A program made the translations under genes and the position numbers. The notes below the pieces were generated by a model. That model had not been told where the DNA came from. It saw nothing but the letters and a program-made list of their open reading frames with translations, and searched no databases. Source: Moniliella sp. 'wahieum' (Eukaryota). Taken from it: a stretch of 64,000 bases of DNA. The stretch is taken from positions 434,001 to 498,000 of the forward strand of contig RSEE01000029.1 in the NCBI GenBank assembly GCA_003971905.1. Reading direction: 5' to 3'. Below, piece by piece: positions 1 to 62,495 of the stretch; the first letter of the stretch is position 1, and each line of letters starts with the position of its first letter.

Positions 1-693
1 GGGTGAGGGGCGTGGGAGGGTGGATGGGGGCAGTGGCGCCAAGCGGAGGCGGGGCGGGGCAGCAGCAGCAGCAGACACCAGGCACGACGCCAGCGGGAGC
101 GTTGCGCCGATTGACGACGGAAGCTTGAAGCGCTGAAGCGGAAGCGCTGAGCCAGCCACTTGCCACACCAAAGCCACCCCAGGTGGCGGCGGCCCGCAGA
201 CGGGCACTGTCGGGTGGGCTGCAGGGTCTGTGTGGGATGGTGATCGAGTGGGTGATGCCGCCGAGCGGGATGCAGATGCAGATGCAGGGGGCAGGACGCA
301 GGGTGTGGCCACCCACCCAGCACGCCCCCTGGCAGCGCGCCCACTGGCCGGGTGCGGGCCGAGCGGCAGGGCCTGGCGTGGGCTTTGCCTCGCAAGCCCC
401 GCTCGGGAGCATACATGCGGAGCACTGGCCATCCGAGCGCCTCAGCAGCCCAGACGCCAGCGGCCAACCATCGCAGCGCCTGAGAAAAAAACAGGCCAAG
501 CCAAGCCAGCACCCTGCTCGGCCACGCCCCCATCCTCTTCCACCCGCACCCCACCACCTCTTCCGTCCCGCTCCTGCGGCCCCCCGATGCGCTTCGCGCG
601 TCCGCTCCTCTCCCACTCCCACTCCCACTCATACTCCCACTCATACGCACCGCTGCCTGCCCGCCCACCTGCTAGCCCCCACACCCACACACC

Positions 694-3181
694 ATGGCCG
701 ACACTGCCCCGCCCCCCCTCTCTTCCCACCCCACCCTCTCCGGCTGGCCCACATCCGTCCCCCCCCTCGACTCGTGCGACCTCCTCGCCCCCTGCGCTTC
801 CCCCTCCCACGCCCTGCCGCCCTCCATGCACGACACCGCTCCACTCGCCCCTCGGCCCCAGTGGCCCCACCCGACCAAACATTCGCACTGCCCATCTTGC
901 CTCCCCACGACACCAACGTATGTTCCCTCCTCCCTCCCATCTCTTTCTTGCCCTTGCTGACGTCTGCCCCCGCTGCTATTTTCCTCCAGACTCCCGCTCC
1001 CCACTGGCCTTGGCAGAGTAGCGACGGTCTTGCCACCCCCGCCGATGGCCTGCCTCTGGCTCATGTTGCGTACGAGCCCGACGCGGACTATTTCCACCCC
1101 ACCCCGCCCGAGTACAGTACCCCCCAGCCTTGCTCCCCCCTCCCTCCGCTCCGCCCGCTCCGTCCCGCTCGCCCAGACCCCGCGCCTCGGCTCCTGTCTC
1201 GATGCCGCCCCCGCGCTCCATCCCACAAGTAGGGAAACATTCCCCCCCTGCCCTGCGTTCCCGCTTCCTCCAGCCATCGCCTCCGCAGGCGGCTGGAGCG
1301 GTATACCGCCTGCCGGTGCGGCCTTCGCCCCCCTCGAGCCGACCTTTCCCAGGCCGGTTATCCGAGTCTCCCCCATGCCCGCTTGCGCACTTACGACGAT
1401 CCAGCCAGGCTCCTGTGCATGCTAGGCACCACGACTTTACGCACCCCCTCGACCCGCCTCCGCCTCGATCGCCCGCTTCGCCGTGGGAGAAGGTGGTGCC
1501 GGCTCATCCGCCTCCTCCGTCCGGGTCAGATTCATCGATGCTGCACCCCTCGCTCAGCTCACCTACGTTGGCCACGTCGAGAGATGAGGTTGTATACGAT
1601 CTGGCAGTAAAACGGAGCCAGGCAGCGCTTGCTGCGCCCCCTGGTCCCTCCCTTGCTCCGACCGCCCGCGCAACCGGAGCTACAGTGTATTTACAGGTGA
1701 CGCTACCAACCTCCTTTGGCCCTGGCGCTGGCGCTGGCGGCGGCGGCGGTGCGATGCCGCCGAATCCGAATGATGTGCTTGCGGCCCGGCTGGGACAGTT
1801 GTGCATTTCGCCCTCCAGCCAGGAGGAGGTGCGACGGTCGTTTGCGCGGCGCCAGACCACGGCCAGTACAGCTGCTCCGCCACAGAGTCTCGAAGCGTTA
1901 CGTACGAGCCACGAGTGTGGCTGCTGTGCTCCGCACGGCCCCTGCTGCGGCGGCAGCGTCGCAGGCGCACCCGACTCGGTTAGCATGGGCACTTGGCCGC
2001 ACCTCACTCATCCGGCTTCTGCGCCTCTGCCCCTCTGGCCCCGGAACCAGCGTCGCCCCTGGACCATGCCCTGTCTTCCTCCACACGCGACACGGCGTAC
2101 GACCAAGTCAGTCAACTCACTCCTCCGTTACTTCCTGACCTTGTGACTCGGCGACATGAGATGGGGTTGCCCCGGACCGAGGACAGTGCACCAGCTTCCA
2201 CTTCGCCTACCTCCACCTTCCCCCATGCGCACCCTGATCCGATCGTGCCAGATCATGGAGCCGGCGCAGCGCAGGCCGGAGCAGGCCTTGGAGCCGGGAC
2301 AAACACTGCACCCGCTCCCGTACCCGTACACACCCGCACCTGCACCCACAACAGCACCAGCAACAGCAACCGGACACCCGGCGGCCCAGGACAGGCGAAT
2401 GGAGCGCGCAAGACCGAGCTGTACAAGACCGAGCTGTGTCGGAAATGGTCGGAGCGTGGCAGTTGTCGCTACGGCGCCAAGTGTCAATTTGCTCATGGCG
2501 CACAGGAACTGCGCCCCGTGGAACGTCACCATCTGTACAAGACACAGGGTGTCGCACGTTTGCCAGTACGGGCGTCTGCCCGTACGGGTACAGATGCTGC
2601 TTTATTCATCCGGACCCTTTGGCAGGTGTAGGTGCGCCTGGTGCGGTAGGTGCTAGTGCGACGGCTGCTGGGGCCCCGCGCGCCTCCCCGGCTCTTACCT
2701 CCGATACTGTTACCACCCTGACCCGCCCCGCCCCACCGACACACACAGCTCCCACCCCCGCCTCCGCAGCGGAAGCAAGTCGGCGCGCACCCATCGTCGT
2801 GCTAGTCGTACCTCATGTTCAGGCTCAGGCTCAGGCTCCGGATCGGGACCGGGATCGGTTGCTGCTGCCCCTACTGCCAGCGGAGCAGGTGGAGCAGGTG
2901 GATCAGGATCAGGCGGAACGAGCAGTGTGCATGTCGCCATCACACGTATGCACGAAGCATTGCACCAAGCCCGCACGCATCCCGGTAGCGCCTCTTTGTC
3001 CTGTACCGAACCTGAGAGCTCTAGTTCCAGTTCGCCCGTACCCGTGTCCGTGCCCGTGCACACACACACGCCCATGTCCATGTCCAAACCTTCTCCCCCA
3101 CTCGGTTGCCCCACCGCCGGTCTCACACCACTGACTCCCCCGCCCGCTCGCATCCGCATCCGCGCCCGCATCCCCATCTGA
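694..3181 (+). CDS. Tandem CCCH zinc-finger RNA-binding protein (TIS11/Cth2/Zfs1 family), multi-exon, frameshifted
   Basis: [27 protein letters not shown] (~2420-2500) is followed by [25 protein letters not shown] across a frameshift at ~2548. A GTATGT..CTGAC..CAG intron starts at ~918. Start and end are approximate. Confidence 0.85.
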
Positions 3182-4273
3182 CTAAGCCCGCCTGCGCCAC
3201 CTTGCCTCCCGTCCCGCTTGCCTCGGACCCCCGGGAGAGCAAGTAAGCTAAGGCGTAAGCGCGTGCCGCGGGGCTTGGCTTGCAGTTGTGTGACTTGGCT
3301 TGGGCTCGAACGTGGGCTTGGTGTGGGCTTGGTGTGGGTTAGGTTGGGCTTGGCTTGCTCGAAGCCTGCCGAATGCAATCCAAGTGCGTCAGTATGCTTT
3401 TCTCTTCGCTCTATTTACTTTTGTTGGTCCTCCGCTGCCAGCCAGCGAGACGCCCACGACCACGACGAGAACACACCCCCATCTAAACGCGAAACGCGAA
3501 ATGCTGAACGCTAAGCGCTGCAAGCCCAACTGCACCCTCCCTTCGAGGCCTTGGTCTCGACTTGGTCTCGTCCCGCATCCTTTCTATTCGTGTTAAGCGC
3601 ACCACCCTCAAGCGTTGGTCCGTTCAACATATGTCATTGCCTTGGGCTTGGGTCCGCCAGCCTCGGATCGGATCCTGACCCTCAGGCCTGAGCCTCAGCA
3701 CGCTGCAAGTCCCTCCAGCGTTTCCAGTTTCTCTACTGCTTCCAGCTCCGCAAGCTTCACCGGATCAACGTTCTCAATCCTCATTCTATCGTCACTCTAT
3801 CCACCCACCGTTCTGTTCCGACTCGATTTGATTTGATTCGATTCGATTCGATTCGACTCGACTACCCTTTTTTGCGGTTTGCGCAGCCGCGCTATATGCT
3901 ACGATTCGTACTCTCTATATCTATCCGAACCCTTTTTTTGCTCTGCCTGCACGTTTTGCTTTGCTTTGCTTTGCTTTGCTTGGGACCCCATCTATCTCCT
4001 ACCGCCGCCTTTTTCTCTTTTCTCTTTTCTCTTTCTTCTCGTGTCTCTTTTCTGTTTTCTCTTTTCTCTTTCTCCTTGTCCAGTGCTCAATGCCCAGTGC
4101 CCAGTGCCCAGTGCCCTCTCCCCCGTTTCTTCTCTCCCGGTGAGAAAAAGATCACTGTACTCCCCTCCCCCCCACGCCCCCTCACCCTTCTCATTCGTCT
4201 TTTCTCCCTCTTTTCCATTTCCCATTTCGTGCTTGTGCTTTGCTTGTGCTTGTTCTCCTTCTCCGTTGTTTGT

Positions 4274-4347
4274 TGCTTTTTGCTTTTTGCTTTTTGCTTT
4301 TTGCTTTTTGCTTTTTGCTTTTTGCTTTTTGCTTTTTGCTTTTTTGC
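4274..4347. repeat. (TTTTTGC)n 7-bp microsatellite in a long pyrimidine-rich region downstream of the CCCH gene
   Basis: About 10 tandem copies are directly visible, and they generate spurious ORFs on both strands. Confidence 0.9.
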
Positions 4348-7300
4348 ACCTTGCTCCTTGCTCTTTGCTTTTTGGTCTTTGCTCCTTGGTCCATGCTTTT
4401 TGCACCTTGCTTTTTTGCGTTTTGCGTTTATTTGCGTCCGTGTTTTGGATTGGTTTGCGGGCTCGTGCAGCCAAGCTCTTTTTCGGACCCGCCGAACCGA
4501 GCGTCCAGCGGGGGGCTGCAGTGGCACCGCGGAGCAGGAAAATCCAAAAGCCAGAAAAGGCAAACACAAAAGCAAGCCAAAGCAAAAGTGCAAGACGACA
4601 ACTCAAACGCTCTACCTACCTACCTACTGTTCCCGTTCTCGTTGTTTTTGTTTTGCCCCCCCCCTCCCCCCTACCTGCTCTACCGCTCTCCGATCTGTAC
4701 CACAGCGTGCCATCTCTCTCGATCCTCCCCTTCCTCCCCTCTGCCTCTCCCCGCACATTATCCTGCTCGTCGCACCGAATAATTTTGATTTATCTCTCTC
4801 AGAAAACCCCTACTGAGCTATGCGCTCCCAGAACAGGATCGATGCGGATAGGATAGGATTGGGTAGGATAGGACAGGGAGAGGTTACTAGGATGATTCAG
4901 TGGTTATAGGATTTTGGAATGTAGCCGGTGGAAGGCATGAATTGGTTGGTGGAGTTAGGTGGGTAATGGTGAGGTCACAATCTAGCCACTGTACTGTACT
5001 GTACTGTACTGTACACGCTGCACAGTGACACAGAACACACGCAGATACGCGCTCAGCTGCTCACGCTAGGAAAGTTGGTGAGAAACGTTAAGTCCGAAGC
5101 ACCAGAGAAAGAGGAGCTTGGTGCGCCGCGCGGGACCGGTGATCCGTGACCAACGCGCCGCAGTCGGATGGCCGAGGGAAAACGTGATGATCACGAGCAC
5201 GCGGGGGGACCGTCGGGGAACGGGGAACGGGGAACGGACGAACCGGGCACGGGGCACGGTGCACGAGGGACCGAGGGCAAGCCTGTCGGTCGTGGAGAGA
5301 ATGAAGGGATAGACGCGAACCCAGCATCCCAAAAAAAGAGGAAGAGCTAGCGCGTAGCCCTCAGAAATTAATTGTTAGTAGTGCCACCGTCGCACAGGGT
5401 CTAGCTAGGTCAAGTTGTCTTCTCCACGTAACAATTCCCCCTCGAAAACGTTCTTAGACAAGAGCAAGGAGGAGGGAGGGAGTTCGACCAGGACGGCCGA
5501 GGCACCAAGGCGAACACATGCGAGAGAGATGAGCGTCCCGCCACGGCAGCAGCAGCCACATAAAAGAAGAAGCCCGAACAAAACAATGAATACTTCGGGT
5601 AGAGGGAGGTATCCGGAAGGTGTGGAAGCAGCGTATGGCCCATGTCGAGGCAGGGCTGAGATAAATGCAAATGCGAGCGATCATCTGATCGATCCATAGG
5701 CGCGTTCGGCACTTAATACGGTCCTCTCTTCCAGCACGCCATGCCTAGCGGGTGCCCTCAGAGACATAACCCGAGTCGAAAGGTAGAGAGATGGTTTGAT
5801 GCTTGGGCGTGGCACTCGCAGAGCTAAAGCAGCCCTGCTGTAGGGCATTCGCACTGCACACCATGGTCGCCTCTTGGGCTGAGAGCTATGGGTCTCAAAC
5901 CGGGTTGCCCAGTGCTCCTTCTCGCGAGACGCAAAAGGTCCTGGGCCAGGACAATAAGAGACGAACCGTAGGAGCAACGGGATGTTCGGGATGTAGGGAG
6001 GCTAAACGTGCGGTTGAGAGGGAAGGGCGATGGAGCGATGAGAGACAGAGGAAGCGGGATGTAGTGATGTGAGGGTTGGTGCCCGTCCGGGGAGAGGCAC
6101 CACTCCACTCGATAAAAATCTGTTGCGCCATGATCAACTGGCCGCAATTCATTAATCAGATCAATCAGACCGCTTCCCCTCGGGGTACTCATCGATACTC
6201 TATACTCCGTTCACTCCGTGCTCACAATCAGCTCCTTAGCTCTTTCGGTCAGTAGGGGCCATATGATTGCGGCCACTGGTCACGCGCACGGCGCAACAAG
6301 GTGGCTGCCGAGAAACGTGAAGAGTGAAGCTCTTGAAGCTCGCCGGTGAAGCCTGAGTATGGCCTGAAGGGCCTGAGGGCTAGCAGGCTGTGGCGCCTGG
6401 GCTCAGCGCTCAGTGGAGCAGAGCCCTCGCTGAGGCCCAGCCCACTGGTACTGATGATGTACTGATGCCTAAGCTCCAAGGGCCTAAGGCCTAAGGGTAG
6501 TTGGATTGTGCCACTGTCTTGTCGTCAACAGGAGCGTATTGTCTGCGGGCGTTGAACGTACGCGGTACGTTGAACGTTGAGAGAACTGAGGAGTTCAACG
6601 TACCTCCGACCAACGTACCTCCTCACTCCAACGTTCATCGTTCAACGTGCAGCGAACGCGTAGGTTCAACATGCCAAAAGCATTCGCTTGTGCAGGGTCA
6701 CAGGTCGGTGTGGGGTGGGTCTCTGTGACCGGGTTGACCAGAGCCAAGCTAGTGGGGCCATGCCAAGTTGCTGCGGTGTGTACGGTTGGAGAAACTATGA
6801 GGGTGGCCCTCGGTACCGCGGGTATATAAAAACCCCACACCTGTCAAATTGCTTATCGGTCAACGTACAGCCAAAAGGTCCTTGGTGACGTGTGACGCGT
6901 GACGCGTGACGCGACGTCAAAACATCTGTCAAGAACAAAAGTTTTCGGCAGGCACCGGGACCATGCAACTGCCTGTCCATCGACCATCCAAAGTCATCTA
7001 GTCATTGATAACGATGCATCATATATCATACATCATGCATTGTGTCACCTGTCACCCTCACATGTATTAACATGCCATACCATAGTATGCTATTGATAAT
7101 CTCTCGCCTGGAATGAGATCTGTGGTGTATATCCGATCGGATCTTGTACGGTGCGACTGTGTTATAGACCAGAGAGCAGGCAGTTGGTAGTGTATTGCAT
7201 TGCACATGAGCTGCAGAGTCTAGAGAATCCTACCCGCCAGGAAGGACTATATATTGCACGGAACAAACCAAAAGGTTCTGGACTTGGGCTGCTGGCGCCA

Positions 7301-9309
7301 CTACACCAGTGAGGCGTCACATGTCTCAGACTGATGAGATCGACAGATAGGGAGCGGAGTTGGGCGGACTTTGGGGCTCAAAAAAAGGGTACGCAACTGA
7401 TTGCCACACACGTCCAACTTCGATGACGTAGAACGTATTTTGAACGTTAGTGAATGAGAATAAAGCTATAGCTAATCAAGTGCAACGCTGATGCAGGTCA
7501 TGGCGCTGATGCGTACAACGCCCCTGCATAATATAACCGTAGGACATGTATACGTTGAGTATAATCTACGTGTGTGGCCACCGGTCGTTTCCACAGATGA
7601 AGGAGATATAGGGTAGATTCGGTAACGGTCGGAGATAAGCGAAGAGGAGGCAAGCGAAGAAGAGCATGTGCGAGGAAGAGGAATGATATAATGATGCGAG
7701 GAAGAGGCGTGCGAGGAAAAAAAGCAATAAAAGCGGGGAAAGAGGAAACAAAAACAATTGAAGCGGGAGAGGGGAGGAAAAACAAACGAGGAAGATGGCC
7801 GACACTGGGTGTTGGTGGACCCGAGAGAAGTACAATCTCCCTCTTTCTTGTCAATATAGGTACAACAGTCATCCAGTCATAGAGATGTGCGTCGTATCCA
7901 TTCCGATAAATCCCGATTGGCCAAGATGTGTTACATGTTACATGTGAGCCACACAGCGCGTCGTCGCTCTAAAAAAAGCGCCAAGCTTCTCACGTTCAAA
8001 AAGTATGAAGCTTCAAGCTTCAAGCTTCGCAGTCCAGAGCTAGCAATCGATAGCCCTCTAACTCTTTCTTAGCATCCTCTTTGCTGGCGTCGCTTAAAAA
8101 TATCATTTTTTTGCTGTTGTCATGGAACCCGCCGCCGTACCCCGCCTACGCCCCGCAGCACCCGGCGGGGTATAGGGGGTTGGCAAGGCGGATCCTATTA
8201 TAGCGCACCACCGCGGGCTAAGCACTGACTCGACAACGCGCCTACAAAGTTCACCTGCACGGTCGTCGCCCATAGTGGTGGAGCCAGCACGACAACTCCG
8301 TAGGGTTCATCGATCATCAAGGCATGTTGATGAAGCTTGAAGCTTGGAGCGCAATTGCCCTCTGCTTCGGTTGGAGCAAAGCTGCGTAGCCCTTTTCGTC
8401 TGCGGCTCTGCTGGCTGACCGCTGCAGTGGGGTTACCGGTTATATAAAGAGTGAGATGAGTACTGAGGAGTGGCCTGAGGTCTCTCCAGGAAGGAGACCA
8501 GAGGGATTGAGGCCCTCAGCCTGAGATGCCTAATGCATAATGGGACCGCCGCAGGCCGACGATTCCTGCAAGTATACGCCGTGATCGTCGCCTGCTCTGC
8601 GCAAGTCAGTTGTGCTCCGCAGTTGTAAGCATGGCCTTCAGGCTGATAGATATCCGACCCTGATACTCCGCTTCGCCGCAAGCGCACCTACTGCGGCGCT
8701 CTCGATGCCTGTCTTCAGTAAGCATTGCCCTCCAAAGAGAAAAGCCAGCCAACAGGCGCTTGTGAATATCCGGCGGCCGAAAAGGCAGGCAATTCGCAGC
8801 AACGCCCCGTTATTACCATGTAATGCTACTGGAAACGAAGTTCACTGCGGAAGACCAAGTTCAGTAGCAGCATCCTCCACAGTCTTGCCACAAAACGCTC
8901 GCTGATCTGCCATGTCTTATAGCGCCGATTGCGACAGAGCAACTCCCATTATATACAGGGTCTGTCCCGAGCTTATTTGACTGATCCACCCCCGTTTCCC
9001 GCTCGCTTTTCGCACACCGCACACCGTGGGTGGTGGGCATTACAGCAAATAGGGCCAACGCTCGCTACTATATCGCATCTCGCTCTTCTCCACGCCCGTC
9101 CGTCCGTTTCGGTCACTACTCCTCCCCTCCAACTCCGTACACTGTGGCCATCCTCCCTCTGCTCGGCTCAAGTGCAGTCCAGCCATTTCATTTCAGCCCA
9201 GCCTCGGAAGCCTCTTTTTCCCACCCCCAAATCGGATCTCGCCTAGAAGCCCCGGGACACCGTATACACCACCAGCTTTGTCGCCACCCACGAGCCAACC
9301 TCCGTCATC

Positions 9310-43127: not shown

Positions 43128-46100
43128 TGTGGCAAACTAGTACAAAGACATTCATGCATATTGTCATGACGACATTCTCAGTAGAATAGATCTAGAGCGA
43201 CGCATACGGCATGATTGTCGAAACACCTAGTCTCGGGAAGAGGTGGTGATGGCGAGGACACGATGGTAGCAGTCCTGGGTTTACGAGGCAAAAAAGATGG
43301 TGCATCTTGGAGCCCCCCCCCACCACCACAGGCCTATAGTCTCAGAATGATTAATCGAGATTAGATGTCGTTGCAGTAATCCGGCTACAGGAACACAGGC
43401 TTGGAAGCTGTCGCATCGAATATATGCAAAGATCCATAGAACCAATACCTTGGTACATGCCCGCTGAGGATGATAGTCGAACATATTCCCACCCTTGGAA
43501 GGGGAGGTTGGGGATGGGTTGTAGGCTTTATGCAACGTATTGAATGAACTATAAAACATTCTGGTGCCCTAATGGTATCAAACTATCGAGATCCTTGTTC
43601 TGTTGATTCAAATGTCCCCCTTCCGCCCCACAAAAGAGTTCAAGTTGCAACGTAAGGGTTCCAAGAAGCGCTAGTATAGGAAGAATTCCAAGATAGAGAG
43701 GTCATTTGTTGCCAGTGTTTCCTAGATGCAAGAAAGACAATAACCTGTGATCTAGGGTTATCAACAAACTAAAGACCTGAAGTTGCTATCGACTTGGTGA
43801 ATCAACACGCGGATCATATGGTTTGCATCGTACGCTTTTCAATAGTGCCGGACGCTCCAGGAAGCGTCCTCAGCGCTAGAGCCGGCTTCACAACTAATGC
43901 ATTCCCTTCGGATCATCACTGATGTCTTTAACGATGAATTAAGCAATGAAAGGGGGAGATCCGTATACAGGCCCGCATCGTCGGTCACTGAAATACCGTC
44001 GTGTTGGCATCAGGTTCTCCTGGCCAATATAACCACGGACGGGTACTGGACGAGTTCCACTACTACGCTCTCTCCGAGGTGGAAGCGGATTCTACTACGA
44101 GAATTTCGTGGTTAGTCCTCATCCTGGAGGCCTATCCAACAATGATTTCGGCATACTGGGATCACTTGTAAGACTTTTGCAGTTATCTTACAGTAGGAGC
44201 TATAGCCGACTCAATTATATCGGTGTGATGGCTCAAGCAGCTAGGCGCCGAGGGGGTGTAGGAGGGGAGTGAAGCGCCACAACGAAGGATATAGACAAAA
44301 TGAGGCGTCGCAAGCAAGAACGGACGCACGGACTTATATGTGGCAAAAGGCAGCAGGGTCGCTGGCTGAGGAAGTATAGCAACATGTCTGTTGATGATTG
44401 CACATATGGCGACGGAGAAGAGTGGCAAGAGAAGAGGACCGGATACGAGACCTGGAAGAGCAACGAGGGGTGAATAACAGTTCCCGGTGATCCAAGGAGA
44501 GGAGCAGCGAGGGCCACAGAAACTGTGAAAAGGCTATACAGAGACTCAAAAGTCAGAAGATGCGCCTAGGAGAAAATGATGTTGCCTTCATCCGGTTAGT
44601 TGAATGAAAACCCTCCGTCATAAGGAAACCCCCATACGGCCACAGAGTTCTAAAAGAACACTAGCGCAAATAGAGAAAGAAAGGGAGGAAGGAATGGAAC
44701 CCGAACTTACAGGGGTGAGTTCCTCGTGCAGAAGAAGCCACGAACAAACAGTCGGGATACTCATAGTTTCTCTGGAGGGAAAAGCGCGCTAGATATGAAA
44801 AATGCTAGGGGATACGACGGGCCATCGCTCTCCTGTTTCCAGGAGGAATACGTGAGGTATATTTTCACACATTCCTCCATCGAGCAGGGTGCCGATTGAC
44901 GAGTGATTGGGCTCAGGTAGCAATCACAGGAGTGAATTAATAGTGGGTTTCGTTGAGATCAGGCCTCATGACAGGAGAGGAATAGTGGAAGTCAATAAAA
45001 TGGGCAACGACTAGGCAAACGAGGCATATAGACTTAACCGCCTGGTTAGCCATACAGTCCGTCTTCGTTTGCAATAGATGAGGGGACGCAGACAACGCGA
45101 CAACGGGTGTTGCGTTGCTCGTTCAGTATGTACTGCACATACTTCTTCATGCATGCACCATGCACTCCCACAGTTGAGATGAGAATACAAGTCTCACGAA
45201 TGTAGACGTGCCTATGTGAACCAGCCTTGGTATATCGCAATCGGCAATGAATCCGAAGCCATACCATAGATGCCACATTTTACTACCACCAAGATTGTAA
45301 ACGCTAATACTGGAAAGCTTTTTGATCAACAGAGGACTGTGGCTGAAGATGAGATTCTCGGTGCACAGTTCTCTCATATCATTCACGGTCTCACAGATGA
45401 TCGATGATCGATGATCTGAGATCTGATCGATGTGGGTCATCATTCAGCAAGGTCTATACCGCCCACGCCTCCATCCCTTGTTGCGCATCCCAGCGCTCCC
45501 AGCCTTCTCTCTCGTTTCCGAGCCATCACATCGTAGGAAGACAGTGCCTGGTATTCGGGTCTGAGATCTGAGATCTGATAACTGACATCTCTATCAACGA
45601 ATTGTGCACACATATAGTTTGCCATTAAAACCTCTCATTTCGGGTGGAACGCCGATACACGTCACATAATAACTCCTTAGTATATGAATGGCTTCTCATG
45701 TTCTCTTCCGTCGCTCATCGAGCTCATCAATGCATTGTGTGTGTGGGTGAACATCTGTGCTCGAAACTGTTTAACAGTTCGACGGCGGGCGGGTGTATAC
45801 ATGTGTACACATCTTCGCGCACCCGTTTTCACATCGTGCGTTATGTACGCCATACTAAGTACAAACGCGTTAAGCGCTTTAGCGCCAAGTACTAAGGAGA
45901 GTCTTTTGTTTGTTGGGACAACGGGGCGATATCAACTGTGAATGAAATGACAGTTCAAAAATACAGAAGAGAGACAGGACAGAAGGCCAAGTCAGTATGG
46001 CGTAAGAGCTTATGCCTTGGACCCTCCACCCCATAAACAAGAGCTCATAACGAGTGCATCGCGTACAGCTCTCCCAAGTTCATTCATGCCATCATTCACG

Positions 46101-47929
46101 AACCAGTTCGATCAAAAAGGCCACTTTTTGGTGTATTAGCCAGACGTGACGCCCTCTGTTGGCTTCCCTTTCATCGCTTGCTTGGACGCTTTCAGATCTT
46201 CATATCTCACCTCTCACCGATCACCTGCTCTCCCTTCCTCTCCCAGGGCGGACACCCCCGCTGTGCGATTAGGGTTAGGGTTAATTCACACTCGCCAGGT
46301 CGCATGATGCCTGTGACCATACGTCTCTCGTACAGCCTGGTGCTCTGAGAACATGGGAACACCTGAACGGCCGGAATGAACGTTGAACGCCTGGCCGGTC
46401 GGTGAGCGGTCGGGGGCGGAGAGCGTTCAAGACGTTCAAGTTGAACGATGGTAGACCGAAACCCACAGTAAATCGCGTTCAAAGAAAGCGAACGAACACG
46501 TGGCGACCATCCACCAGCACGATCCTGAGATGATGCTATCGGAGCTTAGATGTGAGACCTGGTTCAGGGCCAAAGTTCATATCACACACTGCTCATCGCA
46601 TCATGCATCATGAGTACATGAGTGCATGAGTAGTGTCCGTAGGCCTGCAGTCGTTCTCTGCCTGGTCCCGGTCAAGCTTCAAGCTTCAAGCTTCAAGCTT
46701 GACCCGGTCGAATTGCAGACGTTCGCGTAACGCGTAACGCTTCAACGCGTCCAACGCATCCACACCTCACCATCTCACACCACGCTGGTGAGCGCTTGCG
46801 CGCACCCACGGCATCACCGTCAGCATGGCGGACTTAGCGCTCAGGCCCAGGTGAGGCCGTCTCGGGCTGGCAGGCTTAGCGCTAGTCAGCCTGACTGGCT
46901 CAGCTGAGCGCGCTCAACCCGTCAGCGCGTCAGCTGACGCTAGTGAGTTCGGCACGTCTAAGAGCGTTCACAAACGTTTCACATTCAACGTTCAACCAGC
47001 GTTCAATGTGCACTCGCCTCAAGCTTCAAGCTTCACTAGTTCACTCTTCCTCCCTAGCTCTAGTTACTAGTTACTAGTCACTAGTCACTACTAGTCACTT
47101 CTGAGCAGATCTGAGATCTCGCATGTGACATGTATATGACAGCTGGATGACATAGTGGCACAGTCTGGCGCTGCGCGACTGAGTACTGGGCGCTGACATC
47201 GTGTGGCAACTGTAACGTGGAACATGGAACACATGTAGCACATGCAATAGAGCGACGCGGCACCTCGTCACCGCCACCGCCTCCCTGTCCCAGTGACGCG
47301 GAGACGGGTCGCCGGTCGAGGTCCCGGAGACTTGCCGGGACATGCCTCGGTAACGCGGAGACAGGCGGGTCGCCGGTCGCCGGACACACTGCCGCAGTCA
47401 CTAGTCACTTCTGCAGCGCAGACGCCTTAACCGACTCAACCCGAAGGCAGCCTAACGGCCAACGACCAACGTCCATCGGAGAAATACGGTCGAAAGCAAA
47501 CAGGATCAAGAATGGGCCGAGTATCATGCACATGCGCTATGATTCAACCACCACAATAGGGATTCGATGCTACGTGTGGAGTATCAAGGGAGGGAGAAGG
47601 GGAGCAATCGTTCGTGCACGAAATTTTTTTATTCCAGTAAAAATAGTGTGTTCGAAAAGAGAGAAGTGAAAGCATGAGTGCGAGTTAAGAAGGAAAGGCT
47701 CCAGGGCAACGAAGGAGCAGAGTTATATGGTCCGATGAGCGCGATGAAAGGGGGCACACAATGAGGAGAGAGAAACATGGACCTGGAGACTAGACGAGCG
47801 ACCAGGGGGTATAATGGAAAGAGAACCGTACGCGAGACGGTAAAGAGTGAAAGACGATGCGTGCGAGCTGCGCGAAGAGAAGGAAGAGAGGGGTTCATCG
47901 TTTAACCCAAAGATGTGTAGGAAGCAAGC

Positions 47930-49292: not shown

Positions 49293-52200
49293 GTGGGACA
49301 GAGAGGGGCAGGAGGTGTGGGGGGGTGGTGGGGAACGGGAGCAAAAGCGAGTGGGATCGGAGCTTAACATATACGTTTGCGTCAACGACGGGTGCGTCGG
49401 TGAGTCGCAGGACGGAGGAGGGGTGCGCTGCTGCGAGCGGCAGCGTAGTCAGCAAGGCAGCATAGCCACACCAGGCCACTCTTGTCCGCCACTGCCTGCC
49501 ACTGCCCGCCACTGCCACATCCCAACCATCGGCCAACGCCGGAACGGAGAGAGCGTGGATGCAGGGCCCTAGTGGGACCACCTCATCGATCATCCATGGT
49601 CGATGATCTGCAATTAGTGATCGGTGACCAAGTGACTGCTCGCCGGTCACCGGTCACCGGTCTTACCTACTGGACTGGTACGAGTCGATGGATTGTTCGG
49701 AGCAGCGAGGAGGTGGCGTGTGACACGTGACACGTGACGATGTGCGTAGGACATGCATGATGTGGCCGGCACGGGTGACCGGTGACCGGTGACCACTGCT
49801 GCCCGGTCACAGGGACGCCGCCGTGGGGGTTGGCGGCATGCTGGGACAAGGCAGCGGGTGGGCAGGGTTCGGTGGGCAGGAGGGGATGCCTCTTGTCCCC
49901 TGTGCTCCCGGGTCCTTGCTCAATCATGAATCAACGACATTAATCATCGACATCAGCCAGTAACTAATCAATCATCGATATCGATCATCGCGTTAGGAAG
50001 GCTTAGGATCCCTTTGAACCGCCCCCTGCCACCCCTCATTTTGGCGTCCGGAAAGGGTTCTGAGAGGGAGAGACCACAGATGGAATCCGAGAGTGCTCGG
50101 CCGCTCAGCGTCAGTTGGAACACAGCAGTAGGCCGCGTACCCGCGGTACATCATTATGTGCGCCAACGAGTCTGCCGCCCGCGTCCCGTCTCGCCATTTT
50201 TTTTGCGATGGCATTCCAATGCAACGCCAGATTCGCGACCTGTGGGTCTAGGAGCTGTGCATAAGCGCCAAGCAAAGAGCCCTGGCAGTTGGGGTTGGGA
50301 AGATTGCCACGCCTCTCGGCTCTAATTCTAAGGCCTGAGGCTGAGGCCTCACGCGTGACGCCTAACGTCAAATACTCCAGAGCAGTGGCCAGTGAGTACT
50401 AAGTTCACGCGTCACGTGTCACGCTCAATATCCAACGTTCAATTCAGCTGGTGTGGCTTCGGAGGTCCTGGAAACAGGGTTCAACGTCGGCGAGCCGCGG
50501 CTGGGCTGAGCCGCTGAGCCCTGGACGTGGCCCCCGAGCGCCTGAGCGCCTGAGCCGCTGAGCGGTGGCTACGCGCTCTGATCCTCAGGAAACTGAAGAC
50601 TGAAGGCGACAAGCGCCGACCGGCTGTACATTCAGCAGAACTTGGAACGTTGAACGTTGAACAGTTGAATCAACGCTAGGGCAGTCAGGAAGGTGTTGCG
50701 GGATGCGATGGAACGTGGACCCGAGGCTGATACAGGTACCATGGCCCGGAGGGCCATGCATCCGCACGACAATAGTCCCCCCCCCACTCAAGTCCAAGGG
50801 GGTGGCCAAATAAGGCCATCGAGCTTCCGTATCGTTGTTGTGACGACTGCCGCCTCTGTCCCCGTTTCCTTTTCCTTTTCCCGGTTGCGACCGGTAACCG
50901 GGGTAACCCCAACAGACCCATCTAGTATACGGAGCAATTCATCAATGCAAAAGTACATCAATTCAAAACACAAGTGCAAGTTCAATACCAGTGCGTGCCC
51001 GGAATAACTATAGTAACTAGCCACTTGAACATGTAAACAGTGACTAGAGTGAATAGAATAACTATGTACGTAGTGGCACCCTTGGGAAACTCGGGGAATT
51101 ATATTAACACAAGTTGGCAAACCTAGCACGAGTGCAGTGCTAGCCAAGTCTCAGGATCTCAGGCTAGCTGTGCTGGTGCCGGGGTCCTCCCATGATCATG
51201 TTCTCACTGTCCCCCCCCCCCCACCCCTTCCCCACGTTGTGACGTGTTGCATGTTGCATTGACATGTTAGCATGAAAGTATCTTAGATCTTAGCCCACCT
51301 GGCGGAAAAGGGCGGCACAAAGGATAGGCGCCCGCTTCAGGTCCTTCAGGGTTCAGGAGTTTCTGAGCCCCACAGGACCTCAGAACCTCCACTTGAGGCT
51401 GCGAGCTTGAAGCTTGAAGCTTGAAGCTTGAGGCTGGTTCACGTTCAAGTTCAAAAGCTTAGTGTCGAGTCTCCCATTTATCTATGCACTCGGATGCTCT
51501 CGACGCGTAAAACATGAAATCGCGTAATCGAGTAACTAGTAATCGACCTAATCGAAAATCGGCAATCGATGAAAATCCAATAATCGCCAATCTAGTACTT
51601 GATCATCGATTATCGGTTCCATTTAAGTTGTACATTTAAAACCCAACAAGTCAATCTGAGACTGGGCGAAGCGGTTAAGCGTTAAGCCTTAGGCACGTTA
51701 ACGTGTAAAAGCGGCAAGGCCGGTAACCAGTAATGGTCGCGTGGATCGAAGAATGGGGAGGAACGAGGCTTCTCACCGGTTGGCATGACCCGCATTGCCC
51801 TCATGACCCTACACGCCCAGACGCCCCCCACGCCACCACAACCTGCCACAACAGACCTCTAACAGTAGACCTGAAAACTAAAGGCCTATAACAAGTAATT
51901 GTCAACCTCGCATTACTATAATGTGCAAATGGGTGGGCTCTATTGGACTAAGAAGCTCCTGCGACTGAATTGTCCCTGCGAGCTCGGATGGACGGAAGAG
52001 CTTTTTGAAATGACACAGGGTCCACACACAGCTGATGGGATGGATGCCAACACAATAACTCATCGTATCCGCTCGTGCTACATCTGAGCGAAGGCGGGGA
52101 AGGTGTCACCACGGGTCACTAGCCACTAGTCAAAGGACCCCGAACACTTCCTGGGGTCTCCACATTGTGGTCTCATAGTTCGGTTGGCACATCGTTTACA

Positions 52201-55136
52201 GAGTTTGACGTTGAGGCTGTGGGGCAAAGAAGCGCTGCGCTTAGCCGATCGGTAGAGTTACAGTTCTGTAAAATCTATAAAGGCCAACAGAACAAGGTTG
52301 CAAAAAGGTTACCGACTCAAGCAACAGTTTTATTAAGCTGAGAAGGGAAAGAAAGGACCCACATCAACAGGAACCTCTACAATTAATCAGCTTCTCCGCG
52401 CTCTGAGATATCAGCTCAGGTCAAAGAGCCTATCATATATCAGCCCGCCGGGGTCGAAGATCGAGCCTTGGCGCAAAGGGGTCGGTCCGTCGGCCGAACC
52501 ACTCTTTTGGAGACGAGCCTCGAACATATAACGACTCAGTGTTAATAACGAGTTGAACTCTCAAAAGCCGGGCGAGAGAAGAGACAGGCAAGGGTCGAAC
52601 ACAGAGGGGGGTGCACCGTTGACGGGCCCGAAGAGCCCTCTCAGCCACATCGTGGTGTATGGTATGGATCAACAGGGGAAAGAGTGCAGGAGAGAACCCT
52701 GAAGCACTACCCTGTCACCGCATTGTTGTGAGAACCCTTACCGGTTACCGGTTACCGGCTATACCGGTTGCCAAAACAGTCTTTGTCCAAGTGAGACGAG
52801 CTCCAAAAAGTCACAATGGAGAATGTCGAATGCATATACCAGCTGCCCTCTCGTTCGGCGCGCTTGCGGGAACGCCTTGGAACGGGTCTACCATTGCTTG
52901 CACCCCTGAAGAGGCTCTGAAGCCGAGGCCAGTGATGCATGATGTAGGAGGATATAGGCCTGATATCGATAATCGATAATGGTTGGTGAATGATGCACGA
53001 GACGGGTGACGTATTCAGGGTCTTGAATACCAACACCTGGACATGTCTCTGATCGCTGCAGCCATGTCGACTTGAAATACCCGTGGACCCGTGAACGGCT
53101 GTGCACCCGAAGGAAGATCGGTTCCGAAGACAGCTGCTCTGTGCACAGATGGATGGGGGAAAGTCTTAGGCCTTAGGCCCCTTGGGGCTTAGGCGCTTAA
53201 GCCTAGGTCTTAGGCCTTTGGCCACTTATAAGCCCTGAAGCTAGCGCTGAAGACCCTAAAAGGCTTTTTTTATAAGCTTGACGGAGAGCTTCGGCCGGCG
53301 CTTAGCGCTTACTACGGCTTCAGTGTTGTTACAAATATTGTTACAAAACTCCCTTATACAAGTCACTCTGTCACACCACTGTACAGCCTGCAGCTCAGCC
53401 CTCTCTCGGTACACACATTCCATAGTCTGCTAGTAGTGATTACTATAGTTCAGGTACCCATGACAGGTGCTTAGAACTCATTAGTTGAGTGACTTTCTCA
53501 GTACAGAGTCTCAGTACTACTGATACTCGGTATACTCAGTTGAGTTCACGCGTTCACACGACTTCCAATGCAATCATGTTCCTTCAACACGTTCAACAAT
53601 TTTCAACGCGTTATACGTCCAATATCCAAGCTTCAAGCTTCAAGGCAACCTTCAAGCTTCAACACGTCAACGTTCAGATCGACCGTTGAGACGCTGTGAC
53701 TTTTGTCGTTGTTGCCTGCGTCCAGTACAGTTGTGGCAGGCGAGCTTGTCGTGACCGAGAGCGCGAAACTAACGCCTTTCGCCGTCTAAAACTGTTGGTA
53801 AAGCTCACTAGCCCCTACAAAGACCAGGTCCGGTAGAGAGTCCACGGATGCAAAGCGTTGGAACAATAACGTTGTTCGGTGAAATGCGCCCTCTCAGCAT
53901 CCATAAAGCGAACTGAGTACCAACAACACCATCCTTAATATGAGCCAACTGGACTGCTGTAGAGGTTCCAACACGCGTCTGTCCAAGGTCCCGGCTGTAT
54001 CCGTATGATGCCTGGTCAAAAAGACAGACACAACAAGAGTGGCCGGGGCTACGCCACGCCAGATAGGTACTACATCAAAGTTACACCCACCATCAGGAAT
54101 CCGGTAGCCAAGGGAGTCCAGCACCTTTCCGCGAACTATGCTGAAGTCAGTCCCGCAGGGGGTGGTGAGCAAAGTGCAAAACTTGCTCCACTACCGCGGT
54201 GGCATATCGCTAATAAAGTGAGCAAACCCTGAGTCACCGACAGCCGTGCGCCAGCGCAAAGTTAGTTCAGTGTTGGCACGTCCACATGGAGCAGTGCCTC
54301 GGGGGTGGCTAATAGAAAGTTGAACCCCTCACCAACACCGGAAAGGGCAGCCGACTCGTTGTTCATGTTACTGCGAATGGCGGGCCCATTGGGGCCAAAC
54401 GAAGAAGCAACAGGAAGGCGAGCATAGCACACCAGGATCATTCTTCTGACCAGGGTCGCAGGTTCAGGGTGAAGGGTCGCGTGCGTCGTGTGTCGGCAGG
54501 GTGGCGTGGAGCGCGGCCTGACCAGGGGGCGTGGAGCGCGGCCTGACCGGGGGGCGCAGCCTGGAAGAGAATCCTGGCTTGGGCGGACGGGCGCCATGGG
54601 CGCGGGTGGCGCGGGGGGTACCGTATTCCCGGAAGCCGGAGCTGGGCCAGACCATGTTCCATCTGGATGAGGCGCTCGTGGAACGCGTTCCGCATCTCGG
54701 TCTCCGATAGGTAGTGAAGGTCTCCACCTGGGTAGCCAGCAACCCGTCACAGTCACACCAGCCGTTTTCCATTCGGATTCTCTTTCTACTATCCATTGAT
54801 TGTGTGGATGTGCACACCCATCTCGGCATACAATAATCAGGGAACAATCCCCTGCCCGACACCTTGAGACAAAAAGCCAGCCCAATCTTGACGTAGACCT
54901 AACCCAGGCAAAAGGAAGACGAAAAGGGGGGCTTAATGATGGGATCGATCAGCCGGGCTCGTTATTTCTACCGCTCTCTCGCCCGGGGAGGGACACCATG
55001 ACACGTTCCTTGAGCGTCCCCCTTTTTACTATAGGCTAAAGCTTCAGATCATGTCAACAAACGCAGTTGGAAGGAGAAGGATGAGATCCCTCGGTTCAAT
55101 CTTCTCACCATAAAATCTTCTCTTCGGCGTTACCCA

Positions 55137-55243
55137 TCATTAACCCCTCTTATTCGCCCGGACGCTCCCTCTACTCCCCCGTATCCTCGGCTATATAAAG
55201 GTTCTGATAGCCTCCTGTACCTTTCCTCTCCGAACCACCTCCA
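55137..55243 (+). repeat. LTR-like dispersed repeat with TATA core, copy 2
   Basis: Collinear match to 39728-39850. Confidence 0.7.
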
Positions 55244-58151: not shown

Positions 58152-59395
58152 GGCAGGCAGAGACGGACCAGCTGGCGGGACACACAGGCGGGTGGTGGGG
58201 CTTAGCTTTATACGAGGTGATGCGATATGCGCCCGCGTGCGTCGCTTCCGGGGTTACAAACAGGCGAGGCGTGTGGCAGCTGGAGGGCCCAAGCCCAGCC
58301 GGCGGCAGGCGAAGAACGGGGGCGGGATGATCGATGAGCGCTGGGGCGACCGGTGATGGTGCTGGCATTTGACCTTGGGCAGCGCACGCCGGCCGATCTG
58401 ATGCCAGGCAGCCGCACGGGGCCAGTGTGGCGCGCTGCCACCAAATGACTGAGCAGGCCCCCTCTGCCCCCGTGCCCCAGCGCACGCGCGCGCCAGCGCG
58501 CCGCTGCTGTCTTGGGTTAGTAGTTACTCAACCTTAGTTCGCGCCTCTGCGGCCTGCTGCCTCGGCGCACCCGACACTGCCCCCCGGCGGAGCGTCCCAC
58601 GCCGTTTCCACGCGACACGTGATGCATAGATGGGCGTAAGCGCGTAAGGCCTACCGGCGCCGGGCGGCACAGATGATTAAGGAGCCCAGGATGATTGGTT
58701 TGATCTAGCCGCATGAAACGTTCAACCCAAGCCCCGCGCTGGTCGCTCCCAGCACCAACCAGATCCCCATCGGATAGATCTTCGATTGTTCAACGTTCAC
58801 TAGTCACTAGTCACTTGCTTGCGGGCCGCGCCTTGGTTGCCATACGGCAAACCAGGTCGCCGTTAAGGAGGGGGGGGACGGCAGAGCCACTCTGCCACCC
58901 CTGCTCGGGGATTGAAAAGATACCTCGTGTCCGGTGGCTGCTGCAGCGATCCTGGCATCGCAACAGCGGCCAGCGCAACACACATACGCGACCATCCATA
59001 TGGTGCATGCCCACCGTACCGATCGTATCAGCGCCCCAATGCAGTTACCAGGATGCCAGACAGAACCAATTCCGCATCCGAAACTCGATGCCGCCCACAA
59101 CTCAAAAAGGGGGGGACGGCATCAAGTACCAACGTTCGCCGTTCGCCGTTCAACGTATCAACCCCTCTCCCACAACAAAGTAACTACGACTTTAGATACC
59201 ACCCACCCGCTTGCCACCAAACGCAGAGAGAAAGGCCGACGGCCCCAGATGATGCGATTTTGGGGTGGGACAAGCTGCCTATCGCGGTCAGGGCGTAGCA
59301 GAACCCTAACAGAGGGGCGCAACCACATGCGCGGGGGCAAGAGAAGCACGCAGGACGGTCAAGCACCCAGGACCGCCGAGGGAAGCGGAAACATC

Positions 59396-59898: not shown

Positions 59899-60923
59899 GG
59901 TTACGAGTCTGGACACAATGGAAAAGCGGTCAGCTGGCTGTCCAGCACATGTGTCGTTGATGCGACAACAAAAAAAGGAGAGGAAAGGCGGGCTAGCGTC
60001 GCTGCGTCCTGGCGCGGACGCAAGGCCACCTTACAGGGGACGATCGGCTTACCTTGCTGGTTGGCGAGCGAAAGGGGACGGCCACTGCAACCCACGAAGC
60101 AGGGATGGGGGGGGAGGCGCTGGCGACAACCCTATCTGCACCCTCCTTGTTCTCCTCGGCAACGGGAGGGACCTAGGGCTGGTCGACTGGCGCAGCGCCC
60201 AGGCAGCTTACGCCTTGCTGCGGTAGCTTCCTCCCGTGCAACCCTAGGTCGATCAAACGGAACCCAGTACTCACGACGTACTCACGCGTCACCGGAACGA
60301 TCACAGTTTTGTGAAACTTTCCTCCCAGTCGATGCTGCAAGCGGAATGCTTTGATGGGCCTGCCGTTCCGTCCATCGGTCAGAGTTACGACGGAATGGAA
60401 CCAGGGGGCGAGATCGGTGCAAACGTGTGCACGCCCGCGGCGACATGTGGCATGTGAATGTGACATACATGTGATGTATAGCGTGTGATGTAGGACACAT
60501 GATGCATGATGGGTGTGTGACTGGGCCCGTGCGGGGTGCTTGGAAAGGGGAAGCGGGAAGCAGGAGGGGCCACGGGGAGTGTGCGTGTCGCGCCCGAGCG
60601 ACGGCGGGGCACCAGCGCACTTTGGTGTCCCGCCCAGCAGCGCCCAGCAGCGCCCAACGCCCCCGTCGGACCAAGGGAGCGTGTGGTGGCGCGTGGTGGC
60701 GCCCACGGGGCCTCAGCCCCAGGGTGGGCGCCCAGCCTGGGCCAAAGGCCTCAAACTCAATCGCAGCTTAGGCTTAGCGGTTAGTTAGCTAGCTTACCCG
60801 CCCGCCGATCCCCTCGGGTCCGCCCTGTCGCTCCTGGTTTTGCTGCTCTGCTCTTCCATCTCATCTCCTCTCTCTCTCTCTCCTCCCCGCCCTCACCTTC
60901 AGCCCCCCCCTCCACCAGACAAA

Positions 60924-62052
60924 ATGGACTCGTGGAAGACATTCACCAGCAGCCTGTCCGACGCGGCCGCGAGTGCAGCGGCGAGTGCGGCGCCCGTGGG
61001 CACGCGGCTGAGCAAACAATTTGGGCACTTATCGCAGCAAGCGCGGGAGCGGTTGGGTGCGGTAGACCCGTCGGACCTAACGGAACTTCCGAGCGAGTAC
61101 CGGGCTCTGGAAGCGCGCGTCGATGGACTACGATCGGCCCATGCGACCTTGGTGCGCGTACTCAAAGTGTACCAGACGGAAGGGTACGATTGTCCTGTTA
61201 GCATCCAAGACTCGGTGAGCGATGCGTCGCGCTCGGTGGTGCAGACTGTTGGTGCTTGGACTGCCCAAGCACGCGGGGTAGCTGCGCCCACACTTCCTCT
61301 GACCCGGCTGTCCGACGTACGTTGGCCCATACGCTTTCGCGCGCCATGGCCAGTGCAGCGGTGGAGGTGGGCCCAAGTCCCAGTCGACGGGTGCGAGTGG
61401 GGTGCCAAGTGAGCCAAGTGACCAGGGGGAAACGGGATCGGCGTTGGCTGCAGCGTTGCGTTCGGTGAGCGTGGCGAGCAACAGTGGGTCAAGCGCGGTT
61501 GCACCAAGATGGAGAGATTCAGGAGAAAGTCAGTGCGCCATGGGTGGCGTTTGGCAAGCAGATTCAGTTGGCTGTCCAGGCACGTGGGGAGGTGCAGGAG
61601 GCACGGTTGACGTTGGATGCGGTCAAGCAGACGCTGAAGAGTGTCGAAGTGCAAGCGGGACAAGGTACGGAGGGGGACAAGGTGCAGCATGCGCGAGCGG
61701 AGGTGGAACGTGCGGAGGATGTGTTGGTGGCTGCACCGAGCAAGCGATTGGACTGATGAAGAATGTGTTGGAAAACCCCGAGCCGATCCGGATGCTGGCG
61801 TTGTTGGTTAAGACGTACGTTTGGTTCCTGATTTGCTACGAGCAAAGCGCGATGGAGGGCAGGTACTGATACAATCTTTCTCTTCTTCTCTTCTCTTCTC
61901 TTCTCTTCTCTTCTCTTCTTCTCTTCTCTCTCTTCGACTGCAGCCAAGCCGAGTACCACCGCACCGCAGCCGAGGCGCTCGACACGGCGTTCACCCAAGT
62001 TTCGGCGGATGCGCGGGGGGTGGAGGAGACGTTCCGTGCGAGTCGGGTGTGA
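60924..62052 (+). CDS. BAR-domain protein (Gvp36-like), frameshifted
   Basis: MDSWKTF..QQARERLGAVDPSDLTELPSEYRALEARVDGLR..YQTEGYDCP..ARLTLDAVK..EVERAEDVLV..AIGLMKNVLENPEP. Intron at ~61815-61942. Confidence 0.82.
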
Positions 62053-62495
62053 AGCTTGAAGCTTGAAGCTTGAAGGTGATAGCAGGATGCATGAAACGTG
62101 AAACGTGAAGAAGGTAACAGAGGGCTTGGTCGACTCGACAGAGACCGTATCAACTGCCTCGCCAGAGGGGTAGGGGGTAGGGGGAGGAATCTACACCTGT
62201 GTAGAGGTAGGAGCGCAAGGTGGACTATAGGTTTATGTTGTGCCATGCCTACCCCCATCGACCGCATCCTTCCACGCGCCCGTACCGGTTACCGACTCTT
62301 TCTTTACACTATCCAATTCAATTTAACCCTTGGCACAAAGGATGACAGGTGCAATCTCCCTAGCCAAGGGGAATGGACAGGTGCGATCTCCCTAGCCAAT
62401 GTGACTGGACAAGGTACAATCTCGCTAGCAAATGTGACTGGACAAGTGCATCTCGCTAACCAAGACCGCTACCGCGTACCGGCACTCCCGTCCCC

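Follow-up and report, generated by a model that had tools for sequence, protein, structure and literature searches.

The non-coding DNA of Moniliella sp. 'wahieum' carries many short tandem repeats that share one fixed geometry with largely free sequence, and the question is which process could build them. The window studied here is the whole 64-kb stretch of contig RSEE01000029.1 that was analysed, known from one assembly (GCA_003971905.1), and all window counts and positions given below refer to it. The repeats are self-complementary heptamers whose arms vary around a constant T-n-A core (hereafter TnA, where n is any base), arranged in arrays with a period of 7 bp. We propose that these arrays are probably excision footprints of a cut-and-paste DNA element, which would have inserted and left many times, cutting 7 bp apart around TnA.

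The reality of the arrays was studied with an exhaustive list of the exact period-7 runs that reach 14 bp or more (two or more copies), and the expected numbers were taken from 30 order-3 Markov simulations. The window contains 73 of these runs, against a simulated mean of 4.1 and a maximum of 8, and the same exact-run count gave 8 runs for period 8 and 10 for period 9. The unit is an odd palindrome in some rotation in 40 of the 73 runs, where 0.37 were expected, and 39 of these 40 have a TnA core (binomial p = 1e-22). A preliminary description of this DNA, made from the sequence, had pointed to 14 arrays, all of which were located to within a few bases, and had considered the core to be always T-n-A. 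This is correct for 39 of the palindromic runs; the remaining one is (GTGACAC), with 2.7 copies at 49720-49738. Shifted by one base, this array becomes a GTGAC-rich repeat that resembles its neighbours, and it may be a shifted relative instead of a true exception. Twelve different arms had also been described and do occur, and the claim that only all-A/T arms were missing was inexact, as AAT is present.

The symmetry is restricted to this period and this core. No symmetric run was found at periods 8-12, and period 5 gave 18 against 11.7 expected. A TnA signal appears at lag 7, with 151 pairs of the same n against 28.8 expected. Outside the arrays, single TnA heptamer palindromes show a mild excess (195 against around 156, z around 3). 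Short palindromes as a class are not enriched over background in the window, and a general richness in palindromes was dropped as an explanation for that reason. All the palindromic arrays among the 73 runs sit in non-coding DNA, as had been noticed before, in stretches that lack long open reading frames (ORFs) and 3-base periodicity.

The arrays follow a simple grammar, in which TnA triplets are joined by 4-bp palindromes. Links of this kind between triplets with the same n were found 86 times against 2.1 expected, and between triplets with different n 19 times against 5.5, and the AnT, CnG and GnC analogues of these links stay at background; the centre base of neighbouring units was identical 86 times and complementary 7 times. 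When palindromic hexamers of the form ANNNNT were compared at lag 7, identical hexamers were found 30 times and unlike ones 9 times, and unlike hexamers appear only 0-4 times at other lags, supporting that the pattern goes beyond one unit copied in tandem. Among 79 chains, each of the 16 possible 4-bp palindromes serves as a filler, roughly by composition, so the fillers are locally templated and do not originate in element ends.

The ends of the chains were also tallied. Among the 134 ends of 67 same-n chains, the period runs for 0, 1, 2, 3, 4, 5 or 6 nt past the last TnA in 40, 16, 43, 8, 15, 7 and 5 cases, respectively. These lengths are non-uniform (chi-square p = 7e-15) and the ends fall at module borders, which identifies TnA, a dinucleotide and its inverted complement as the building blocks. 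In the commonest single-link form only 5 bases are repeated at lag 7, and this form is therefore impossible by tandem duplication of a 7-mer. The 151 14-mers with two same-n TnA at lag 7 were then sorted into classes. Exact palindromic copies account for 34 (expected 0.00) and exact non-palindromic copies for 8 (expected 0.05), and 44 are one-sided, with the 4-bp palindrome built from the dinucleotide of the left flank in 24 cases and of the right flank in 20 (expected 0.10 and 0.23). The two sides contribute in nearly equal numbers, which is what a symmetric process would give. One junction base is changed in another 13, and a further 44 belong to no named class, where 28.8 were expected.

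The decisive signatures are a 7-bp duplication centred on TnA and the short fillers that separate its copies. Eight of the 33 non-palindromic exact period-7 runs contain TnA, and in 6 of the 7 TnA-bearing non-palindromic runs of 14 bp the triplet is exactly centred, as nnTnAnn twice (binomial p = 5e-5). Abutting exact TnA-centred 7-mers were found in 42 short windows. A direct duplication of fixed length, an exact 7-bp repeat, is thus retained at the scar. The duplicated 7-mer has a symmetric motif at its centre, its third base being T and its fifth A (T3/A5), and beyond these two bases the target showed no preference.

The fillers were classified as P-type when the 1-3 nt between two copies of a 7-mer are the inverted complement of an adjoining repeat end. 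Between TnA-centred 7-mers, fillers of 1 nt complement an adjacent repeat end in 7 of 7 cases, those of 2 nt are P-type in 10 of 12 short windows (7 of 9 distinct loci), and those of 3 nt in one of two; pooling the 1-2-nt fillers gives 17 P-type against 2 others. By contrast, the 2-nt fillers between all other 7-mers are P-type in only 2 of 103 cases (2 against 101), a difference with Fisher p = 6e-11 when counted by short windows and 3e-8 when counted by loci, and the Markov expectation is around 0.07 per class. Of the 21 structures that bear a filler, 10 have a maximal direct repeat of exactly 7 and 5 more have one of 8. These fillers and the 44 one-sided products place P-type nucleotides derived from the local flank at the junctions, and the fillers are even palindromes, which implies that the hairpins from which they would come were blunt.

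The sequence itself shows the centred 7-bp duplication, the P-type fillers and the derivation of the palindromes from the flanks; the hairpins, the insertion and excision and a mobile agent are inferred from them. These data are consistent with a series of events that would begin with a transposase-like enzyme attacking the two strands 7 bp apart, symmetrically about T-n-A. Insertion would duplicate the 7-bp nnTnAnn, excision would leave each flank sealed as a blunt hairpin, and host enzymes would open these hairpins either at the tip or 1-3 nt off the tip, the off-tip openings giving short self-complementary overhangs, the P nucleotides. Enzymes that open hairpins cut around 2 nt from the tip. 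Tip-opened hairpins followed by end joining would produce the exact 7-bp duplication, and opening one of them 1-2 nt off the tip would add 1-2 P nucleotides, with periods of 8 and 9. If both were opened 2 nt off the tip, with one 4-nt palindromic overhang kept and the other lost, the net gain would again be 7 bp, in the form of the one-sided product, in which a 4-bp palindrome templated by the adjoining flank stands between two TnA. At a palindromic target the two overhangs would be cohesive and would yield a perfect tandem copy; since the one-sided products would themselves be new palindromic targets, sites would grow into heptamer arrays, which ordinary slippage may lengthen further.

A heterotypic chain of four TCA triplets at 58788-58815, with the string GTTCAACGTTCACTAGTCACTAGTCACT, illustrates what would be expected from successive events at one TnA. 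Its fillers come from both flanks, the left one from the left flank and the right ones from the right flank, with the flank GT giving ACGT and the flank CT giving CTAG. The chemistry proposed has precedents, as the available part of PMC5499845 describes excision by way of flank hairpins for hAT, Transib, RAG and the MULE Muta1, with host enzymes, Artemis among them, opening these hairpins and end joining then leaving footprints.

Two other models of the scar were considered. A 3-bp duplication of TnA with 2+2 nt of element termini was dropped, as all 16 fillers occur. A 5-bp duplication with 2 P nucleotides fits the 12-mers, of which 122 of 164 would have T at target position 1 and 124 of 164 would have A at target position 3, and requires an asymmetric target; it was superseded by the symmetric 7-bp model.

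The scars are unevenly distributed. In total, 77 scar loci cover 1,187 bp, with 39 loci per 591 TnA sites between 44 and 54 kb and 2 per 525 between 28 and 38 kb (p = 2e-9), a pattern that would be expected if accessible DNA, or DNA close to genes, were preferred. The scar-poor stretch of around 13 kb at 27000-40300 has a lower GC content, of 0.46-0.57, and none of its 78 ORFs of at least 70 amino acids matches Pfam.

The presence of similar arrays elsewhere was investigated in metagenomes. A scan with three units of the commonest heptamer returned at least 121 contigs, and among the matches listed 18 share a name prefix and fungal-type proteins, encoding NLR-like NPHP3_N with ankyrin repeats, ICE2 and pieces of polyketide synthases. 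Further palindromic arrays with a TnA core were seen, among the matches listed, in contigs L012, L021, L038, L043 and L057. Among these same matches, palindromic arrays other than the seed make up 19 of the 169 non-seed period-7 runs, close to chance, and 11 of the 19 have a TnA core. In the 18 fungal-like contigs, non-seed TnA triplets joined by 4-bp palindromes number 10 against 4.6 expected. These counts indicate that the density of scars is special to this organism and that the array type itself is found elsewhere. The only near-identical pair of array-bearing contigs, L026 and L048 (99.1%), has the same array copy number. A bacterial-looking contig, L030, which encodes DUF5686 with CarboxypepD_reg, carries ten period-7 arrays around one gene, at 240-570 and 3240-3520, with units that include CTTCAAG, CCTTAGG and ATTGAAT; given the bacterial appearance of this contig, palindromic TnA heptamer arrays reach beyond eukaryotes.

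Several observations weigh against the proposal that an element left these footprints, the first being that none was found in the window. A search of the window for identical 7-mers flanking inverted termini gave no hit at 12 of 14 matches, and a looser cut-off applied to 1982 TnA-centred pairs returned only array-to-array artefacts. No transposase domain was detected by Pfam in 217 window ORFs (8, 131 and 78 in three sets), neither an hAT nor any other element was found within the 64 kb, and dispersed repeats were absent from the window except for one 130-bp pair. The two copies of this pair, at 30702-30827 and 37888-38017, lie in direct orientation 7.19 kb apart with 84% identity, and could be the ends of a decayed element. 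The grammar has its misfits as well: 8 of the 151 14-mers hold a palindromic filler that matches neither flank (expected 1.85), and around 15 of the 134 chain ends halt after a whole 4-bp palindrome, both of which need extra events. In 18 of 67 chains the target deduced is a palindrome, where chance would give around 1 in 16, and this excess points either to a preference for symmetric targets or to growth by slippage. Another 25 period-7 runs, such as that at 4273-4344, lack both TnA and a palindrome, so heptamer microsatellites of other origin coexist with the footprints. Finally, the P-type signature failed to appear in the 18 fungal-like contigs, on counts too low for a judgement (1 P-type against 2 others for 1-nt fillers, and 0 against 1 for 2-nt fillers).

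The absence of an element from the window, together with the density and regional clustering of the scars, would also suit a host process without any mobile element, in which a chromosomal nuclease or a domesticated hairpin-forming transposase makes recurrent 7-bp-staggered breaks at the TnA of accessible intergenic DNA and repair leaves the scar; moreover, the signature reveals the chemistry of the enzyme and not its owner. We nevertheless regard this process as unlikely, because a staggered cut followed by fill-in yields the 7-bp duplication but fails to give P-type fillers. To our knowledge, no such host hairpin system has been found in fungi, and Pfam scans gave no candidate gene in the window. 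According to the available part of PMC5499845, the covalently closed hairpins that P-type fillers need are known from transposase and RAG chemistry. That the cutter is a domesticated hairpin-forming transposase, or a very-low-copy element under host control, and works by cutting and rejoining accessible regulatory DNA at TnA time after time, seems to us a decidedly unlikely version of events. If true, promoter-proximal arrays would be a built-in, fast-mutating intergenic layer of the lineage, and the stagger (7 bp), the target (T-n-A) and the geometry of the hairpins could be read from the scars without the enzyme.

Slippage of hairpin-prone heptamer microsatellites, with palindromic units stabilising the slipped strands, is improbable as the origin of the arrays. 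A tandem palindromic heptamer would be self-complementary at 6 of its 7 positions, arrays of 3-4 copies are present, and the 25 runs without TnA or symmetry compare with only around 4 runs expected in total. Slippage does not predict, however, that minimal non-palindromic duplications are centred on TnA, that fillers of 1-2 nt are inverted complements of their neighbours, that adjacent units carry unlike 4-bp palindromes, or that chains end at module borders, and the 5-base repeat of the commonest single-link form lies outside its reach. Symmetric arrays of period 8-12 and an enrichment in short palindromes are likewise missing from the window. In addition, slippage works with a landmark-free phase and grows by whole units, and here the phase is locked to TnA and the fillers of periods 8 and 9 are templated. 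Slippage is thus disfavoured as the source of the arrays, and may have lengthened them later.

The preliminary description had itself read the arrays as footprints of hairpin excision, and the fixed-length duplication with a symmetric target and the P-type fillers agree with that general idea. Its details were those of hAT elements of the Ac/Hermes type, with an 8-bp nAnnnnTn target, hairpins offset by 1 nt and 7-bp footprints with an altered centre, and in this form the explanation is very doubtful. The mark that defines the Ac/Hermes type is a complement-flipped junction base, and among the 151 14-mers both junction bases were complemented in none and one of them in 3. The duplicated unit has 7 bp, nnTnAnn with the symmetric T3/A5, in place of the 8 bp of nTnnnnAn or nAnnnnTn; the centre base of neighbours is overwhelmingly the same (86 against 7 complementary), and even-palindrome fillers imply blunt hairpins. 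What remains in favour of this explanation is that an 8-bp duplication minus one base could give a 7-periodic product, and that hAT excision runs through flank hairpins, as stated in the available part of PMC5499845.

A functional origin, with the arrays as clusters of binding sites for dimeric proteins kept by selection in regulatory DNA, appears no less doubtful. The arrays are non-coding and cluster near genes, for example within the 1.2 kb upstream of the ORF of a GATA factor, and the CTTSAAG unit recurs at around 9 loci of the window in addition to the metagenome contigs found with it (at least 121). Against this, the four-base palindromes are used in all 16 forms, in rough proportion to composition, with only the T and the A fixed, and both the P-type fillers and the centred non-palindromic duplications are mutational signatures and no grammar of binding sites. 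An assembly or sequencing artefact is scarcely credible, for even though one assembly is behind the window, similar TnA-core arrays appear in independent metagenome assemblies (the five contigs named above, among the matches listed), the pattern avoids coding regions, and we know of no artefact that yields locally templated palindromes.

Regarded as excision footprints, the scars were compared with those of known systems. In mechanism, the closest are the footprints of hAT, Transib, MULE and RAG. Hairpin-type footprints (Ac/Ds, Hermes, Transib and Muta1) and the coding joints of V(D)J recombination likewise show a retained duplication with flank-derived inverted-complement additions, as far as the available part of PMC5499845 describes them. 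The scars reported here differ in the 7-bp nnTnAnn duplication, in additions that are even palindromes, and in the lack of the Ac/Hermes junction flip; they are also dense enough to form microsatellite-like arrays, with no element seen in the window.

In the geometry of the target, the closest are Galileo, hAT7 and Kyakuja. We know of no account of the excision chemistry of Kyakuja. Duplications of 7 bp are reported, in the available part of PMC12730594, for the fungal hAT7 of Pucciniales and Kyakuja of Agaricomycotina. They share with our scars the 7-bp length and fungal hosts, and no relative of either was found in the window. The 7-bp duplication made by Galileo has a palindromic consensus, GTANTAC, which forms part of a 15-bp palindromic motif, according to the available part of PMC4168063. 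Galileo and 1360, of the P superfamily in Drosophila, thus share a 7-bp odd-palindromic target with the scars, but in the source available theirs has an A-N-T core with specified arms, and here the core is T-n-A and the arms are free. Excision of the kind known for the P superfamily leaves remnants of the element ends and no P nucleotides.

A T-n-A triplet at the dyad is also typical of PIF/Harbinger targets, with TNA/TWA duplications in an extended palindrome, and Abr1 of Agaricus reportedly makes a 7-bp duplication. In the available parts of the sources, 3-bp duplications are mentioned for PIF/Harbinger (PMC12730594) and ABR1 is labelled hAT-type (PMC10051438). PIF/Harbinger would give few types of filler and chains that end at TnA, in contrast to the 16 flank-derived fillers and exact 7-bp repeats seen here, and a 3-bp TNA duplication with remnants of the termini was not what the scars contain. 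A literature search found no description of TnA-centred palindromic heptamer arrays, an absence that is no proof of their being unpublished. The scars differ from those of the known systems in a T-n-A core whose arms are free, in the signature of blunt hairpins and in a density that builds arrays.

If the arrays are indeed excision footprints, much of the short intergenic repeats of this organism would come from transposon traffic and less from polymerase slippage, and up to around 7 of every 100 TnA sites would be scarred in some stretches. The scars would suffice to reveal how an element missing from this region staggers its cuts, chooses its targets and forms its hairpins, and they would provide a search image for it, namely 7-bp nnTnAnn duplications. 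They would also be a worked example of excision footprints seeding palindromic microsatellites, and would point to a group of sites beside genes where indels are likely and regulation may be affected.

Individual arrays were located along the window. In its first 10 kb, AATCAGA appears twice across TC at 6154-6169, with a P-type filler that reads as the reverse complement of the final 2 bases of the repeat and a maximal repeat of exactly 7. The exact run (CCTAAGG)2 follows at 6481-6496, as the chain TAA-GGCC-TAA with the period continued by both flanks, and (CGTGACG), in around 3 copies, at 6892-6913. TGTCACC is exactly duplicated at 7043-7056, a non-palindromic 14-bp run with TCA centred (TnA phase 2), and an array of the (CTTCAAG)3 type is found at 8008-8028. 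The array-poor region between 27 and 40 kb has a single long array, (GTTAAAC) with 4 periods at 30530-30557, and AATGAGG x2 across TT, with a P-type filler from the right copy, lies at 39041-39056.

A group of arrays is found upstream of the GATA-factor ORF, starting with (GATTATC) at 40381-40400 and followed by the period-7 runs of (CGTCACG) at 40531-40550 and (TGTCACA) at 40586-40600. At 40619-40687 there is a higher-order array, in which CTTCAAG pairs are spaced by AG with periods of 16 and 9 and end in CTTCAAC x2; the AG spacer is P-type, being the reverse complement of the 2 bases with which the unit starts, and CTTCAAC x2 is an exact centred duplication. Next to it, the heterotypic chain TGA-AGCT-TGA-GATC-TGA at 40727-40743 has two unlike 4-bp palindromes between identical TGA triplets.

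In the scar-rich part of the window, (GATGATC)3 at 45396-45416 adjoins a partial (TCTGAGA) array, the whole spanning 45396-45426, and a period-7 run of (TCTGAGA) occupies 45560-45578. Copies separated by P-type fillers are GCTCATC x2 across GA at 45713-45728, with a maximal repeat of exactly 7, and GTTCAAG x2 across AC at 46425-46440. The (CATCATG) run at 46598-46612 overlaps three copies of CATGAGT at 46609-46631, joined by a single A and then a G, with the string CATGAGTACATGAGTGCATGAGT, where each joint base complements an adjacent repeat end. At 46672-46702, (CTTCAAG) has 4 periods, the last with G as centre, and is set in a larger near-palindrome (46665-46710) with the flanks CCGGTC ... 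GACCCGG; the final centre base of this array complements the others, as if it had been partly copied inverted. The array at 47060-47090, (AGTTACT)2(AGTCACT)2, continues up to 47099 as AGTCACT-ACT-AGTCACT, with a 3-nt P-type filler. An interstitial TTAGGG repeat of the telomere type, with 2.5 copies, is found at 46269-46283 within the same scar-rich intergenic DNA.

Further along, (GGTGACC)3 is in exact palindromic register at 49774-49794, and GCTGAGC-C-GCTGAGC and CCTGAGC-G-CCTGAGC, both of period 8 with 1-nt P-type fillers, lie at 50505-50555. Exact, non-palindromic centred duplications are ACTGAAG x2 at 50592-50605, with TGA centred, and GTTAAGC x2 at 51674-51687, with TAA centred. Between and beyond them are (GTTGAAC) at 50645-50662, GGTAACC x2 across GG with a P-type filler at 50893-50908, (CTTGAAG) with 4 periods at 51404-51431 and (GGTTACC) at 52738-52758, and close to the end of the window a second (CTTGAAG) run, of 3.7 copies, at 62050-62075.

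A different kind of repeat forms a pyrimidine-rich microsatellite field at 3800-5300, with long heptamer and pentamer arrays that have neither TnA nor heptamer symmetry. Its units include TTGCTTT, in around 10 exact copies at 4273-4344, and also TTTTCTC, CCAGTGC, CGATT and ACTGT.

The gene content of the window, according to Pfam, is eukaryotic and fungus-like. Matches were obtained for a V-SNARE ORF on the minus strand at 17489-18685, the GATA-factor ORF at 41559-43127 and, at 60789-61409, BAR_2, which we take to be a fungal family; a CCCH finger and a piece of fatty-acid hydroxylase were also detected among the window ORFs. Homology searches turned up no close named relative. The GATA-factor ORF gave no related locus in metagenomes, and its named relatives, many of them fungal and from several phyla, align to the zinc finger only. 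Two coding repeats are unrelated to the arrays: a 21-bp minisatellite with 9.6 copies at 18893-19093, in a long plus-strand ORF opposite the SNARE ORF, and a long hexamer repeat of the GCCCAG type at 42252-42490, within the GATA-factor ORF.

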